Assembly (NCBI GenBank): GCA_964645765.1
Contig: CAZYBE010000007.1
Span: forward strand, 2,644 to 66,643
Reading direction: 5' to 3'
Origin: an uncultured Eubacteriales bacterium
Lineage (GTDB): Bacteria; Acidobacteriota; Aminicenantia; Aminicenantales; Aminicenantaceae
Length of the DNA: 64,000 bases
Shown here: positions 1 to 6,113 of the stretch, one piece after another
How positions within the stretch are numbered: position 1 is the first letter of the stretch
Layout: every line of letters starts with the position of its first letter
Position numbers and translations under genes: made by a program
Notes under the pieces: generated by a model
The model's input: the letters and a program-made list of their open reading frames with translations, nothing else
The model's database searches: none
What the model was told of the DNA's origin: nothing

Positions 1-151
1 GATAAACTGAAAGCCTGAATTTGACATCGTTTTTTTAAGTGTGCGGAAGGGATTCCCAAGACGCTTCTCCCGCTCAGCTTGCCGAGAAGCCAGAAGGGTT
101 ACAGTGCATTCATTCAAGATTTTCTGAATCTTGAGAAGAATTTTCCCTGGC

Positions 152-889
152 TTATTTTTCCTCTTCTCCATACCTGGAAAGGACATCAGAGTTGACCTTG
201 AGGAAGAGGTCATATCTGATTTTGACTCCCCGCTCTTTTTCCAGTTTCATCAAATAGGATTGGAGAAACTTGTTTCCTTCTGCCTCCAGCAGGTTTTCTT
301 TTTCCTTTTCTTTGGCTTTTTCAAAGTCTTCCTGAGTGACTTCTTTCCTGCTCAGGACCTTTATCAAGGCATAGCCGTCCTTAAACTCAATGGGCTCGCT
401 TCCTTCATTTAGAGGGAGAGAGAAAGCCAGCTCATCAATTTTTGAATTCTCTCCGATGATGCTGAGATACTGCCCCCGCTTATGCTCCTCTCCAGTCTTG
501 TATTCAAGCTTGTACTTTTCAGTCAGCTTTTCGAGTCCTATGGTTTTGAGCTCTGAACTGGCCTTTTTCATCTTTTCCAGAGCCGCTTCTTTTTTTCTAA
601 AGGCCACGAGTTCCACTTTGACCTTATCCTCCACTTCATCAAAATTCGCGAGACGCGGCACCTCGACCTTTTTCAGCTCGACAATTCCCACCCCTCGGTA
701 GGTAAAGATGGGAGAGGAAATCTGCTTCTCTTTGAGTTGGAAAAGGGTGTTGCTGACCATGCCTGAAGAGTCAATGTCTTCAAAGGTATCACCCTCTTTG
801 AGGAGGCCTGTGGTTATGATTTGAGGTCCCGCCAAAACACTCCAGCATTTTTGCGAACTACTGATAGACCAATTGTGTCGCGTTTCCAA
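152..889 (-). pseudogene. Truncated diverged duplicate of the ppiD 3' end (C-terminal ~225 aa) with an unrelated 22-aa N-terminus
   Basis: Translation is ~85% identical to the C-terminus of the 642-aa ORF at 2956..4884. DNA homology covers about 146..826 versus 2950..3630. The N-terminal SurA-like and parvulin region is missing. Confidence 0.55.
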
Positions 890-1001
890 TATACGAAATG
901 AATCGCTTTTAGGGGGTCAGGTCAAGCGGCTGCGCAATATCCAGTTTTATTAAAGTGCATATTTGACTGACTGATTTAAGTTTTTTTGTTATAAGTACTA
1001 T

Positions 1002-2477
1002 TTATTCAACATGCGAATCAATTTTTATATTAGGTTCAATATCCCCGCCTTTCCATTCAAATGCACCTAATTGTGCTCCTCCACCATAAATAGGATCAAA
1101 TACTTTTCTAGGCAAAAGTTCTGTGTCATCATCATAAATGATCAGATGATATGGGGTACAGTTCCCGAAATAGAAATACCTGACTCTTTCATCTTTATGA
1201 TTGATTAGATGGGCTCCTATAGTTACATCAACAGGCATCCAACCATAGGGTTCAAAATATACCTGTGCCCACGAATGTTGAGCATGATCCCTATCAGGTT
1301 GAACTCTCCATCCTCCTTGTGACCTGGCTGGTATTTTATTGATCCGACAAAGAGAAATAAATAGGTTAGACTTTGCACCACAATCCCCACGCTTATATTT
1401 TGCAGTATATTCTGCATTATCTCCCATAACAGGCTTTGGATCAGTCCATATAACATATTTACAAATCCATTCATATATTTTTTTTGCCTTCAGGTAATCG
1501 TTAGTCTCTTTACCAATTATTTCTTTGGACAATTTTTTCAAATACGGTGTAAATAAATTACTCTCTGTTTCTTTTGTATATTTTTTATAATCTTGATCCG
1601 AGACATTGTAAGGTTGAATATTGTTGGGGTCAACATTTTTATAATACCCTTTTGATTCATATTCGAAGATGAATTGACAGATAAAAGTGGAATCGCTGAT
1701 AGACGCAGGATTCTTCATTGGTGCAATCCAACTCTGTGAAGGTTTTGTGAAATAATTTCTCCATTCCGTATTTGAGTTATCCATTTTATCAATTACCTTT
1801 TCGAAATAGATCATTGAAGTCAAATTATCACTTTTTGGAAGTGTTATATTATTGATGCTTGAATGAACTATTCTAATATTCGATTGAAACTTATTTTCCC
1901 GAACATAAGGTATCCATGCTTTTAGTAAAGACTGATCGGGCAAACTTCTAATATCTTGAAAATAGCTGAATCCTACATTTATTTTTTTTGATAATATTGA
2001 ATCGTTCTCGAAAGAAGTAATTGTTTCGAGCGGGTATTTGGAAGCATCATAAACTTTGTCTTCCGGTATTTTTGCACGTCTGGCGGCTTCTTTATTAACC
2101 TGAAAGAGATCAAAAATACAGTTTGAGTAATATTTTTTTTCACCATCGATCAGGTAATATTCAAGGCTATAATCATCCTCCCATTTATTCATATCAACTT
2201 CCGACAAATCGGGGATTTTAGGATTTAATTCTTTATAAACAGAATCATAAGATAACGTGTATTCTCTTTTTACTGCCTGAATATCATTTAAATATTTCTG
2301 TAATATTTTAATCTCATTAACTGAAAGCTTAGTCTTGTTCTGTAGTTTAAGGTCTATTATTTTAATTGCTTCTGAAAACTCACCATTCTGAACTAATCGA
2401 TTCAAATTATCAGCTTCTTTATTACATGAAACAAAAAGTGCTATTATTATCGCAGAAAAAGTCAATAATTTTTTCAT
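1002..2477 (-). CDS. Transglutaminase-like cysteine-protease-domain lipoprotein
   Basis: Classic lipoprotein signal MKKLLTFSAIIIALFVSC. C-terminal transglutaminase core motifs GDCGAKSNLFISLCRINKIPAR and HSWAQVYFEPYGWMPVD. The gene is markedly AT-rich compared with its neighbours. An alternative upstream ATG at 2501 has an AGGGA Shine-Dalgarno. The track ORF runs to 2900 but the upstream part does not look coding. Confidence 0.6.
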   Translation of the reverse strand: MKKLLTFSAIIIALFVSCNKEADNLNRLVQNGEFSEAIKIIDLKLQNKTKLSVNEIKILQKYLNDIQAVKREYTLSYDSVYKELNPKIPDLSEVDMNKWEDDYSLEYYLIDGEKKYYSNCIFDLFQVNKEAARRAKIPEDKVYDASKYPLETITSFENDSILSKKINVGFSYFQDIRSLPDQSLLKAWIPYVRENKFQSNIRIVHSSINNITLPKSDNLTSMIYFEKVIDKMDNSNTEWRNYFTKPSQSWIAPMKNPASISDSTFICQFIFEYESKGYYKNVDPNNIQPYNVSDQDYKKYTKETESNLFTPYLKKLSKEIIGKETNDYLKAKKIYEWICKYVIWTDPKPVMGDNAEYTAKYKRGDCGAKSNLFISLCRINKIPARSQGGWRVQPDRDHAQHSWAQVYFEPYGWMPVDVTIGAHLINHKDERVRYFYFGNCTPYHLIIYDDDTELLPRKVFDPIYGGGAQLGAFEWKGGDIEPNIKIDSHVE

Positions 2478-2955
2478 TAAAGTTACATTTTGATGTGACA
2501 TGGGGATCCCTTTTTTGGAATTACATGGATTAGACAGCCCTATCGACCGTTCGGTTGACGGGCTCTTCAGAATGTCGTACGGCCAGGGAGAGACAAAGTT
2601 GGGACTGCAGAGGAAAGCTTCGCGATCCCCGCGATGACGTGGAGAACCAACACGATCGTCTTGAATCTGGCAGAATATAAGAAATTGGTTTTCGGCTGCG
2701 CTGGCCAAGTGGGCATCTCTGTCTCCGTACGCCCGTTCAATCATCGTGTGGGATTGTAAATCATGACAAAAAAAGATGTCAAGGACAGCTTGGGGGCGCG
2801 GGGTATGTCGGCAAAGCGATCCGAGGCGCCAAAAGTGCCTAAAATCACCCAGACCTCTCCTCCCGAGGAAAGAAAAGGCGATGGACTTCAGATAATCCAT
2901 CCGCTCCTAAAGGATTAAGGCCGATTTTCCGGCTGAGGAGAAGTATTCCCCTGGC

Positions 2956-4884
2956 TTATTTTTCCTCTTCTCCATACCTGGAAAGAACATCAGAGTTGAC
3001 CTTGAGGAAAAGGTCGTATCTGATTTTGACACCCCGCTCTTTTCTCAGTTTCAACAAGTAGGAATGGAGAAACTTGTTACTTTCTGCCTCCAGCAGGTTT
3101 TCTTTTTCCTTTTCCTTGTTTTTTTCAAATTCTTCCCGGCTGACTTCTTTTCTGCTCAGGACTTTTATCAGGACATAGCCGTCTTTAAACTCAATGGGTT
3201 CGCTTCCTTCATTCGGTGGGAGAGAAAAAGCCAGCTCATCGACCTTTGAATTCTCGCCGATGACGCCGAGATATTGCCCCCGCTTGTGCTCCTCTCCGGT
3301 CTTGTATTCAATCTTATACTTCTCAGCCAGCTTTTCGAGCGCTGTTGTCTTGAGTTCTACACTAACGTTTTTCATCTTTTCCAGAGCCGCTTCTTTTTTT
3401 CTCAAGCCGACGAGTTCCACGTTGACCTTATCCTCCACTTCATCAAAATTTGCCAGACGCGACGCCTCGACCTTTTCCAGCTCAACAATTCCCACCCCTC
3501 GGTAAGTAAAGATGGGAGAGGAAATCTGCTTCTCTTTGAGTTGGAAGAGGGTGTTGCTGATCATGCCTGAAGAGTCAACGTCTTCAAAGGTATCACCCTC
3601 TTTGAGGAGGCCTGTGGTTTTGATTTGAAAGCCATCTTTTTTTGCAGCGGCACCGAGGATTTTTTCTTTTCGAGCATCTTTCTCTAAGTCGGAAATCCTC
3701 TGTTCAGCCATCTCTCTTGCTTTCTGGTCTTGGAGGATGCTTTGGACCTTGTCTTTGACCTCCTCAAGGGGCCTGGTGAAAGAAGGCTTTTTTTCTGTAA
3801 CTTTAAGGATGGAGACGCCATCATCGAGTTCTAGAATGTCAGATGTTTCACCCCCGGAAAGCCTTTCAATTTCCTTCTGCTCTTGGGAAGATAAAGTCTT
3901 CCACTCATAAAGCCCCCAGTCTCCATTTTCCATGGCTTTTTTATCCTTGGAGTTTGTCTTTGCCAACGCGGCGAAGTCTTCGCCTTTTCGAATTTTCTCC
4001 AGGATGCTCTTGGCTTCTGCCGCGACGAGTTCCTTTTGTTTGTTTTCATAGGGAAGATAGATTCTGCTGACTCTCACTCTTTCTGGTTCCTGGAATTGAG
4101 ACAGGTTCGCTTTATAGTATTTCTCAATTTCTGACTTGAGGATTTTGACTTCCTTTTTTAGGCCATCCGTATTGAGGAAAACCAGGTTTCCTTCTCTTCT
4201 TTCAGGAATTTTGTAATTCTCTTTGTTCTTGTCAAAATATTCCCTGACTTCACTCTCCTCAGGCTCTTTTTTAATTTCCATCTTGTCTGTTTCGATGACG
4301 GCATATTCGATCTTGGCCGATTCATTATTATTTTTATAGCTTTTCCAGACCTCTTCCGGAGTGACGACGATTCCAGCCGTGACGACCTTGAGGAGCTTAT
4401 TTATAATGATTTCCTTTCTCAGGCTCTCTTCGAATTGATCGGTTGAAAGACGACTCCAATTCAGAATTCTCTTGTATTCTTCAAAGCCGATGAATTTTCC
4501 GTCCCTCTGGAACATAGTTTTTATTCTATCCCGAATTTCATCGTCCGAAGCTTGGATTCCCATAGCTCGAGCCGCCTGAAGGAGGAGATTCTGCTGGATG
4601 ATCTCCTCCAGGACCTGCTGGGGGATGTTGAGCTGTTGGATCAGATTTCTGTTGAGGTCTTTGTATTGTTCTTTTAAAGCTTCAAGCTTATCTCTGAGGG
4701 TTTGGAAGTATAAATCTTTTGAGATTTTTTTCCCGCCGACGCTGGCAAGAGTCGAGGGGCCTGCTCCTTTTCCCAATTGTTGCCCGCCTCCCCAGACAGC
4801 GAATATGGCGATGATGAAGACAGCAATCACTATCCATAAGGCAGGAGCCAAGAGCTTGAAGTGTTTTCTCATTGCTTTTAGCAT
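2956..4884 (-). CDS. ppiD: Periplasmic chaperone PpiD (peptidyl-prolyl isomerase D-like)
   Basis: 642 aa with an N-terminal membrane anchor (MLKAMRKHFKLLAPALWIVIAVFIIAIF), a SurA-like N-domain and a parvulin-like region. Position next to the acyl-CoA dehydrogenase gene in the operon. Confidence 0.8.
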   Translation of the reverse strand: MLKAMRKHFKLLAPALWIVIAVFIIAIFAVWGGGQQLGKGAGPSTLASVGGKKISKDLYFQTLRDKLEALKEQYKDLNRNLIQQLNIPQQVLEEIIQQNLLLQAARAMGIQASDDEIRDRIKTMFQRDGKFIGFEEYKRILNWSRLSTDQFEESLRKEIIINKLLKVVTAGIVVTPEEVWKSYKNNNESAKIEYAVIETDKMEIKKEPEESEVREYFDKNKENYKIPERREGNLVFLNTDGLKKEVKILKSEIEKYYKANLSQFQEPERVRVSRIYLPYENKQKELVAAEAKSILEKIRKGEDFAALAKTNSKDKKAMENGDWGLYEWKTLSSQEQKEIERLSGGETSDILELDDGVSILKVTEKKPSFTRPLEEVKDKVQSILQDQKAREMAEQRISDLEKDARKEKILGAAAKKDGFQIKTTGLLKEGDTFEDVDSSGMISNTLFQLKEKQISSPIFTYRGVGIVELEKVEASRLANFDEVEDKVNVELVGLRKKEAALEKMKNVSVELKTTALEKLAEKYKIEYKTGEEHKRGQYLGVIGENSKVDELAFSLPPNEGSEPIEFKDGYVLIKVLSRKEVSREEFEKNKEKEKENLLEAESNKFLHSYLLKLRKERGVKIRYDLFLKVNSDVLSRYGEEEK

Positions 4885-4967
4885 CGTATCACCTCAAATT
4901 TATTTATATTGCAGCGCGCATTTTGAGCAAAACAGCTTTCTCCTTAATTCATTATATCGCGCGTCGT

Positions 4968-6113
4968 TTATTGCTCTTGGAGAAGATGTCGGGATATGAC
5001 AAGTCTTTGAATTTCAGAAGTCCCTTCATAGATGGTTAAGACTCGGGCGTCCCTGTAGAGCTGTTCGATCAAGAATTCTTTGGAGTAGCCGTAACCTCCG
5101 TGAATTTGGAGAGCCAGGTAAGCGATTCTGTTAGCCGCTTCTGAAGCAAAGAGCTTGGCCATAGAAGCCTCTTTGGTAAAGGGCTTCCCGCGTTCATTTA
5201 AATCAGCAGCCTTATAGGCCAGGAGCCGTGACGCATCGGTGAGTGTGGACATGTCGGCAATCATGAACTGAATGGCCTGAAACTCGGAAATTTTTTTGCC
5301 GAACGCCTCCCTTTGCCGGGCAAATTTTACGGCTTCTTCTAAGGCTTGCTCGGCGAGGCCTACCGCCTGAGCAGCGATGCCGATTCTCGAGCAGTCGAGG
5401 CAGTGAAAGGCGACTGTTGTCCCCTTTCCTTCTTCTCCTAAGAGATTTTCTGCAGGAACCTGACAGTCTTCCAGGGCAAACTCTGCCGTGAGCGAGGAAT
5501 GGAGGCCCATCTTATCCTCAATCTTGGAAACCCGGAATCCTGGAGAATTTCTTTCAACGATAAATGCACTCGGCTTTGACACTCCGGCTGAAACTTCGCT
5601 CAGAGCAAAAATAATGGAAGCACCGGCCTCGCTTCCGCTGGTGACCCAGGCCTTTGTTCCGTTTAAAAGATAAACATCGCCTTTCTTTATAGCTTTTGTC
5701 TTCAAGTTTGCGGCATCCGACCCTGCGCCTGGCTCTGTTAGGGAAAAGGCTCCGAGTATCTCCCCCGTGGCCGCTTGGGGAAGGTATTTCTCCTTTTGCC
5801 TTTTGGTTCCAAACTTGAGGATGGAATAACAGAAGAGGGAACAGTGGACGCTGACGATGACCGCCAGCGAGGGAAAAGCCCGGCTGATTTCTTCCAGGGC
5901 AATGAGGAAAGAAAGATAGTCACTTTTTGTCCCCCCGTATTCAGGAGGAACAGTCATGCCCAGGATTCCAAGTTTCGCCAGCTCTTTTAAGAGTTCCCGG
6001 GGAAATTGGTGATTTTGCTCCAAAATCTTCGCTTTGGGGGCGATCTCTTTCTGGGCGAATTCGCTGATCATTTCCCGCAATAGCTTCTGGTCTTCTGTAA
6101 GCTCAAAATTCAC
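4968..6113 (-). CDS. Acyl-CoA dehydrogenase (short-chain/butyryl-CoA type)
   Basis: 381 aa with typical ACAD N-, middle and C-domain signatures (TEDQKLLREMISEFAQKEIAP, GAFSLTEPGAGSD, QIHGGYGYSKEF, YEGTSEIQ). Confidence 0.9.
   Translation of the reverse strand: MNFELTEDQKLLREMISEFAQKEIAPKAKILEQNHQFPRELLKELAKLGILGMTVPPEYGGTKSDYLSFLIALEEISRAFPSLAVIVSVHCSLFCYSILKFGTKRQKEKYLPQAATGEILGAFSLTEPGAGSDAANLKTKAIKKGDVYLLNGTKAWVTSGSEAGASIIFALSEVSAGVSKPSAFIVERNSPGFRVSKIEDKMGLHSSLTAEFALEDCQVPAENLLGEEGKGTTVAFHCLDCSRIGIAAQAVGLAEQALEEAVKFARQREAFGKKISEFQAIQFMIADMSTLTDASRLLAYKAADLNERGKPFTKEASMAKLFASEAANRIAYLALQIHGGYGYSKEFLIEQLYRDARVLTIYEGTSEIQRLVISRHLLQEQ

Follow-up and report, generated by a model that had tools for sequence, protein, structure and literature searches.

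Elements that integrate at the 3′ ends of genes carry substitute ends. Campbell-type integration and homology-facilitated illegitimate recombination (HFIR) have been described for Acinetobacter, pneumococcus and E. coli, and experiments in E. coli showed that one crossover with a circular molecule duplicates the homologous locus, leaving duplications of 109-950 bp on either side of the foreign DNA (PMC3240628). Here, we describe a locus from an uncultured, Aminicenantes-like bacterium that is a well-preserved instance of a known recombination process. Within the 64,000-nucleotide stretch of DNA that we analyzed (the window), an AT-rich gene encoding a transglutaminase-like lipoprotein lies between an intact ppiD-like chaperone gene and a second, truncated copy of that gene's 3′ end (the relic). 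We consider it probable that two separate events led to this arrangement: the lipoprotein gene arrived from another phylum, and the alleles of two strains were brought together by recombination.

Locus layout and the direct repeat

The locus is organized around a direct repeat. Window positions 142-826 align without a gap to positions 2946-3630, at a constant offset of 2804 nt and over 685 nt in each copy. This repeat had been recognized in a preliminary description made from the sequence alone, and its existence holds; the coordinates given there (146 and 2950, rather than 142 and 2946) were 4 nt short at the stop-codon end. The 675 coding nucleotides of the repeat contain 69 differences (89.8% nucleotide and 86.7% amino acid identity), and identity per 30-nt segment is mostly 83-100%, with a single segment at 70%. 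Outside both ends of the repeat, identity drops to a background of 7-40% within a few bases, and the copies share no identical stretch longer than 41 nt. We rejected a continuation of the repeat beyond 142/2946, suggested by a peptide likeness ('GLQ.IH'), because its score of 25 compares with a shuffled mean of 24. The two copies flank 2.1 kb that relatives lack, and the foreign DNA thus lies between directly duplicated segments that act as the homologous anchor. The ppiD-like gene, the relic and the lipoprotein gene are all on the minus strand. The features of the locus are listed below, where labels such as L007 refer to loci from other genomes.

112-141, no strand: native-type intergenic DNA from downstream of ppiD, joined to the relic (BLAST to L008, L030, L061 and L082)
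142-826, minus strand: repeat copy B, the relic of a ppiD 3′ end (codons in 152-826), B-type allele (repeat; allele comparisons)
827-882, no strand: 56-nt junction fragment between cargo and relic (~49 nt like L001 intergenic DNA by BLAST)
883-1001, minus strand: 3′ flank (119 nt) travelling with the lipoprotein gene (common to L007 at 84-87%, partly to L073)
1002-2477, minus strand: transglutaminase-like lipoprotein gene, 491 aa, horizontally acquired cargo (PF01841; composition)
2478-2567, minus strand: 5′ leader travelling with the lipoprotein gene (all 90 nt common to L007)
2568-2884, no strand: host-type non-coding filler, ~50% GC (palindrome-arm BLAST match; no Rfam or Pfam match)
2885-2945, no strand: native-type intergenic DNA with what is left of a convergent acyltransferase gene (its final ~7 codons) (alignments to L061, L008 and L082)
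2946-3630, minus strand: repeat copy A, the last 224 ppiD codons with the stop codon and 10 nt, A-type allele (ungapped repeat; L082 comparison)
2956-4884, minus strand: intact ppiD-like chaperone gene, 642 aa (PF13624, 1e-36; PF13145, 2e-29)

In the product of the intact gene, a membrane helix at the N-terminus is combined with a SurA_N domain and with parvulin/rotamase domains (Pfam). Its orthologues in L008, L009 and L082 are likewise 642 aa long and the second copy is truncated, which agrees with the earlier view of an intact ppiD accompanied by a 3′ relic. The NCBIfam PpiD model PRK10788 aligns over 17-622 at 177 bits versus a cut-off of 493, and 'PpiD-like' is the most fitting name for the gene. 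The relic has kept an open frame, with no stop and no frameshift, and the NCBI source assembly annotates it as a 227-aa protein (window 152-832; P0190) on a contig of 114,804 nt, of which the window therefore covers only a part. Past the relic, homology to relatives detected by BLAST ends at 116 (L008 and L030), 117 (L061) or 119 (L082); the acyltransferase gene of these relatives would start near window 112-119.

Two ppiD ends and the empty site in relatives

Searches of genome and metagenome collections identified the host as Aminicenantes-like: its PpiD-like protein is 54-56% identical at the amino acid level to those of Aminicenantes-named metagenome-assembled genomes (MAGs) and 83-85% identical to those of its closest relatives. 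When the ppiD junction was compared across relatives, nine single-copy loci (including L008, L009, L030-L033, L061 and L082) were found to have one ppiD 3′ end and no lipoprotein gene. These relatives have no match to window 827-2945 other than a palindrome arm in L009 and L032. A convergent acyltransferase gene follows ppiD in L008, L030, L061 and L082, and in L008 and L061 it is followed in turn by a dipeptidase-like gene and an NhaC-like gene. Another gene follows ppiD in L009 and L032, and the site is therefore variable. The acyltransferase, dipeptidase and NhaC genes are found nowhere in the 64-kb window. L082 is 97% identical to the window over 5742-2899, beyond which its acyltransferase gene follows intact, L061 is 98% identical upstream of the repeat, and the homology of both loci reaches window 2899.

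The preliminary description had taken the ~85% peptide identity between the two repeat copies as the mark of an old duplication. The differences between copy A (in the intact gene) and copy B (the relic) do not bear this out. The ratio of non-synonymous to synonymous divergence (dN/dS) between A and B is 0.24, with a dS of 0.29; 39 of the 69 differences fall at third codon positions, and there is no indel and no stop. For reference, true orthologue pairs give dN/dS values of 0.13-0.20. Of the sites that distinguish the copies, L008 matches A at 36 and B at 29, and for L009 the numbers are 30 (A) and 33 (B). These outgroups are split about evenly between the copies, which places the origin of roughly half of the divergence on the A side (i.e., in the copy that belongs to the intact gene). 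Six changes are common to A and L061 against B and the outgroups. Furthermore, other samples contain the A-type allele as a normal gene in one copy (L082, P0229, P0191 and P0212); over window 3630-3070, L082 differs from A at 11 of 561 sites and from the relic at 60 of 561. Because of the dN/dS of 0.24, the lack of indels and stops, the outgroup split and the presence of the A type as a single gene elsewhere, we take the two copies to be alleles from strains ~10% diverged that were joined by recombination.

An old in-place duplication, in which the ppiD 3′ end was doubled at insertion and the downstream copy then diverged by ~10% as a pseudogene, would account for the fact that A and B are mutually closest overall (L061 and L082 excepted). 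It would also account for the changes private to the relic (n = 15), which are mostly non-synonymous (11 non-synonymous to 4 synonymous; codon positions 6/4/5), while those private to copy A comprise 5 non-synonymous and 8 synonymous changes. We read this excess as a modest sign that the relic may have been under relaxed selection since it was cut off. A pseudogene of that age is, however, difficult to reconcile with a dN/dS of 0.24 and with 675 nt free of any indel or stop. Copy A, together with L061 and L082, carries the derived state at about half of the differing sites, and the relic has retained the state of the outgroups there. Finally, relatives only 2-3% from copy A show the ancestral order of ppiD and acyltransferase (L082 combines the A-type allele with the ancestral neighbour), so that precise loss of the insert and regain of the neighbour would be required. 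We thus regard an in-place duplication as very unlikely.

The comparison with L061 shows that the two allele types have also met in a locus with a single ppiD. The functional ppiD of L061 holds a B-type tract of ~140 nt (window 3304-3167), which has 19 differences from A and 4 from B, while window 3630-3305 has 8 differences from A and 34 from B (runs test, p < 1e-5). Comparison with L082 shows the recombinant to be L061 and not copy A; a simple reciprocal mosaic of A and B with respect to L061 was dropped on the same grounds. Between L061 and L082, identity falls from 97-100% to 87-94% over the end of ppiD, the intergenic DNA and the adjoining 3′ end of the acyltransferase gene (L061 ~600-1100), and among A, B, L061 and L082 the final 114 nt of ppiD differ by 6-10%, mostly at synonymous sites. 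Such comparisons indicate that the ppiD 3′ end is a recombination-prone border of a variable region, with frequent recombination at the level of strains.

The B-type tract in L061 also means that A- and B-type sequences co-occur in the population, and an assembler could in principle have stitched an A-type and a B-type strain together near a contig end, in which case the relic and window 1-151 would not be physically linked to the lipoprotein gene. The source is a metagenome-assembled contig, the relic lies less than 830 nt from the start of the window (which may be the contig end), the contigs L061 and L062, from related samples, both break inside ppiD, and no second contig confirms the arrangement. 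The divergence of the copies excludes only a collapsed repeat, and not assembly artefacts as a whole, as had been claimed for it. The junction itself argues against a chimera: 826/827 has no overlap of k-mer length with ppiD upstream of the repeat, and the two sides diverge completely within a few bases. Identical runs between the copies do not exceed 41 nt, and usual k-mer sizes would keep the copies apart; moreover, a mis-join in the assembly graph normally follows shared sequence, not a novel junction with a 56-nt third-party fragment. On this evidence, we consider a chimera unlikely. Within that fragment, ~49 nt (window 827-873) resemble intergenic sequence at L001 155-201 (81.6% by BLAST), and this match lies 7.8 kb from L001's own lipoprotein gene. 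The 49-nt sequence holds a 7-bp hairpin.

The lipoprotein gene, its flanks and its distribution

The lipoprotein gene has a GC content of 32.5% and a GC content at third codon positions (GC3) of 26%. The 46 other open reading frames (ORFs) of the window that served as reference have a GC content of 47.5% (sd 2.6) and a GC3 of 55% (sd 5.6), which places the lipoprotein gene at z = -5.8 and -5.1, respectively, and upholds its earlier description as AT-rich. It is the lowest-GC 1.5 kb within the 64-kb window, in a contig of 47% GC. Because the gene deviates in composition, is absent from the nine single-copy relatives and is present in unrelated genomes, its horizontal acquisition, as first proposed in the preliminary description, is well supported by sequence comparison.

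The predicted product is likewise a transglutaminase-like lipoprotein with a Cys/His/Asp core, as anticipated. Residues 315-417 match PF01841 (Transglut_core; E = 2e-23, 83 bits versus a Pfam gathering cut-off of 23), and Cys366, His401 and Asp417 are invariant across 43 homologues; NCBIfam and PADLOC gave no match for the lipoprotein. The N-terminus reads MKKLLTFSAIIIALFVSC and the signal peptide ends in LFVSC; the ...VSC motif is kept in all eight loci, with the lipobox judged by eye against the consensus, and an alternative start is possible at 2501. In an AlphaFold model with a predicted local distance difference test (pLDDT) score of 91, the nearest structures are PDB 3ISR from Cytophaga hutchinsonii (Foldseek E = 2e-14; template modelling (TM) score 0.66 on target) and the periplasmic domain of TgpA. 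Like the putative PF01841 cysteine proteases of Bacteroidota (3ISR) and the Pseudomonas TgpA periplasmic domain (PDB 6G49), the lipoprotein has a Cys-His-Asp triad and an export signal. It differs from proteins of this kind in that sequence identity is only 14% and in that its helical and beta N-terminal region of ~300 residues is without a characterised counterpart among them. We infer that the product is an exported Cys-His-Asp hydrolase/protease or transglutaminase, either secreted or anchored in the outer membrane; we know of no substrate or activity for the 3ISR-type protein or for the lipoprotein.

Upstream of the lipoprotein start, the frame continues without a stop for a further 141 codons, through the ~50% GC spacer, which results in a 632-aa ORF (1002-2900, minus strand) that could mislead gene callers. 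This longer ORF is probably due to chance, as it has no Pfam match and a non-protein-like composition, and it overlaps the non-coding palindrome arm. The spacer itself (2478-2945; 468 nt) had been described as GC-rich. At 50% GC it is instead host-like, and a reading of it as part of the foreign DNA finds no support, its native intergenic sequence, acyltransferase codons and palindrome arm being of host type. The arm (window 2677-2792) matches either half of a ~230-nt palindrome at 76.5-76.7% (BLAST; L009 7053-7167 and 7174-7285). This near-perfect palindrome is found 2.4 kb downstream of ppiD in L009 (7053-7285) and L032 (4137-4369), and as DNA the L009 copy folds at -60.6 kcal/mol (z = -9). 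The element could mark a fragile site, or else be a small repeat belonging to this lineage; the window keeps one arm only, beside the insertion, and a fold of 478 nt of spacer is not unusually structured (z = -1.4). Inside the arm remnant, ~275 nt upstream of the lipoprotein start, lies a candidate sigma-70 promoter facing the lipoprotein gene (TTGACA-18-TACAAT, 2782 to 2753, minus strand), identified by an 11/12 consensus match only. Host-type DNA may drive the foreign gene from this promoter-like site.

A database search returned 69 homologues of the lipoprotein, many of them at 60-89% identity, and we read seven further contexts (L001, L004, L007, L073, L074, L078 and L080). The same gene is present in these seven unrelated contexts at 77-89% amino acid identity, and in all of them it forms a sharp, one-gene GC trough (32-48% versus flanks of 41-65%). 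Source names and neighbouring genes indicate at least three phyla: Bacteroidota (P0002/L001), Thermodesulfovibrionales (P0017) and an Ignavibacteriales-like host (L007, where AsnA shares 92% identity with its counterpart from an Ignavibacteriales MAG). The closest copy is that of L007, at 93.5% nucleotide identity to the window gene and a dS of 0.125, which is below the dS of 0.29 between the window's two ppiD ends. A link to Bacteroidota, as had been suggested, is partly borne out: the closest copies are indeed in Ignavibacteriales-like L007 and Bacteroidota-named L001, but the gene is a trough there as well (34-37% versus 48-51% GC), and both loci are thus fellow recipients, neither being demonstrated as the source.

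Neighbouring genes vary among the seven contexts, and only L074 and L080 have an upstream operon in common, which contains an extracytoplasmic function (ECF) sigma factor. At L074 3644-7488, L080 3207-7476 and L081, with flanks of ~60-65% GC in two genomes, the lipoprotein gene ends an apparent operon, in which it is preceded by genes for the ECF sigma factor (observed in L080 and L081) and for two proteins of 214 aa and 526-562 aa. The lipoprotein start directly follows the upstream stop in L074 and lies 12 nt after it in L080, and this position hints at a functional link or a common insertion hotspot.

The length of the shared flanks also varies. The window has a block in common with L007 (883-2567, 92%) that extends 90 nt upstream and 119 nt downstream of the gene. 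Shared flank amounts to ~55-75 nt downstream in L073 (window 934-989 by BLAST) and to ~24-38 nt upstream and 3 nt downstream in L001 and L004, and none is visible past the ORF in L074, L078 and L080. This pattern fits serial capture with flank decay and not a precise mobile unit. In L007, a candidate PIN-domain (VapC-like) gene fragment, recognized by eye, lies directly downstream in low-GC DNA (4398-4679), and the foreign segment there may exceed that in the window.

A search for mobility machinery revealed no integrase or transposase ORF in window 1-5000, no Pfam match for the spacer ORFs and no attC core (GTTRRRY or its complement) in 827-1001, and there is no target-site duplication. Rfam returned nothing in the region, either at gathering score (whole window) or at permissive E-values (800-3000), its sole hit being a spurious 17.7-bit match to a Drosophila long non-coding RNA model. 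ARAGORN detected no tRNA in the region and one distant tRNA-Met only. Searches of plasmids, phages and IMG/VR gave only distant relatives of the lipoprotein (24-31% identity) or none, and no vehicle was found.

A gene that has moved among many genomes without obvious vehicles could nevertheless be carried by a site-specific or transposable element, such as an integrative island with a replacement ppiD end or a transposase-less cassette with terminal inverted repeats that is mobilized in trans. Inverted repeats of 39 nt (2685-2723 and 4345-4383; 82% complementary) stand on either side of the gene in L007, and the window retains the counterpart of the right arm (895-933) and only ~12 nt of the left. 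The homology between the window and L007, however, overruns the right repeat by 12 nt and stops inside the left one, and these repeats are therefore not the ends of a shared unit. Among the loci read they occur in L007 only, where no target-site duplications lie beside them, and the sequence in common goes no further than the stop codon in five other loci. An island would further be expected to leave a short, near-identical att core, whereas here the repeat is 685 nt long with 69 coding differences (90% identity). Together with the lack of integrase, transposase and attC core, this makes such an element hardly probable. Another idea, which we regard as speculative and very doubtful, is that the gene with its leader and trailer (and sometimes the 39-nt inverted repeats) is a self-contained 'nomadic' unit, which different phyla have picked up repeatedly by some unrecognised route, with gene ends (the ppiD 3′ end among them) as preferred anchors for recombination. 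If this were true, its AT-richness, even in hosts of 63-65% GC, would be functionally maintained and not a sign of recent arrival.

Proposed origin and comparison with known systems

In the two-event origin that we favor, ~1.7 kb of DNA (883-2567, i.e., the gene with a short leader and trailer) would have entered an Aminicenantes-like lineage by cross-phylum horizontal transfer and inserted into the variable region that immediately follows ppiD, displacing the acyltransferase gene. Recombination between two strains ~10% diverged would have set two ppiD alleles side by side, with one homologous join, inside or beyond the ppiD 3′ end, and one illegitimate join at 826/827. Two routes are the likeliest for this second event: a Campbell-type integration, in which one crossover takes up a circularised fragment of 2.8 kb with a ppiD 3′ end and the cargo, or HFIR of a linear fragment, which would be equally expected to give this product. 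The comparisons show that the gene is foreign, that the site is empty in relatives, that the two copies are alleles and that mobility genes are absent; the route and the direction of recombination are what we infer from the arrangement of the locus. The outcome would be an intact ppiD of the A type and the cargo, together with a truncated B-type ppiD end that no longer functions and has begun to drift.

Several points weigh against this origin. Homology to relatives ends ~35 nt past the relic stop (near 112-119) with no native neighbour, and window 1-111 matches no expected native flank. Because a simple Campbell model predicts the recipient's native neighbour after the relic, at least one further rearrangement is needed. 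There is no independent contig with the ppiD-cargo-relic arrangement, and the 6-10% divergence in the last 114 nt of ppiD suggests that recombination in the population has blurred the record there. Finally, any microhomology at 826/827 would be conjectural, as are the direction of transfer and the crossover point.

The locus provides a clean natural example of a single foreign gene fixed in an uncultured lineage without mobile-element machinery. It also illustrates that a 'diverged duplication' beside an insert can consist of the alleles of two strains, which matters when transfers are dated by repeat divergence. The transglutaminase-fold lipoprotein family has moved among Acidobacteriota, Bacteroidota/Ignavibacteria and Nitrospirota-named genomes, and its transfer between these phyla suggests that it confers a portable selective benefit at the cell surface.

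Genomic islands at gene 3′ ends (with att sites in tRNA or protein genes) resemble this locus in that the incoming DNA brings a 3′ end with it and so leaves the target intact, and in that the displaced partial copy lies on the far side. Unlike those islands, the locus has no integrase, its repeat is 685 nt long and 10% diverged, and its cargo is a single gene. Campbell-type integration and HFIR offer the closer parallel. The experiments on these processes differ from the case described here, which is a natural one in an uncultured Aminicenantes-like bacterium, with a donor that would be ~10% diverged and with a relic whose downstream flank is without the expected native neighbour. What the locus has in common with them is heterologous DNA beside one-sided homology, a direct duplication of several hundred bp that flanks the insert, no need for a recombinase gene or a specific site, and repeat copies that would derive one from the donor and one from the recipient.

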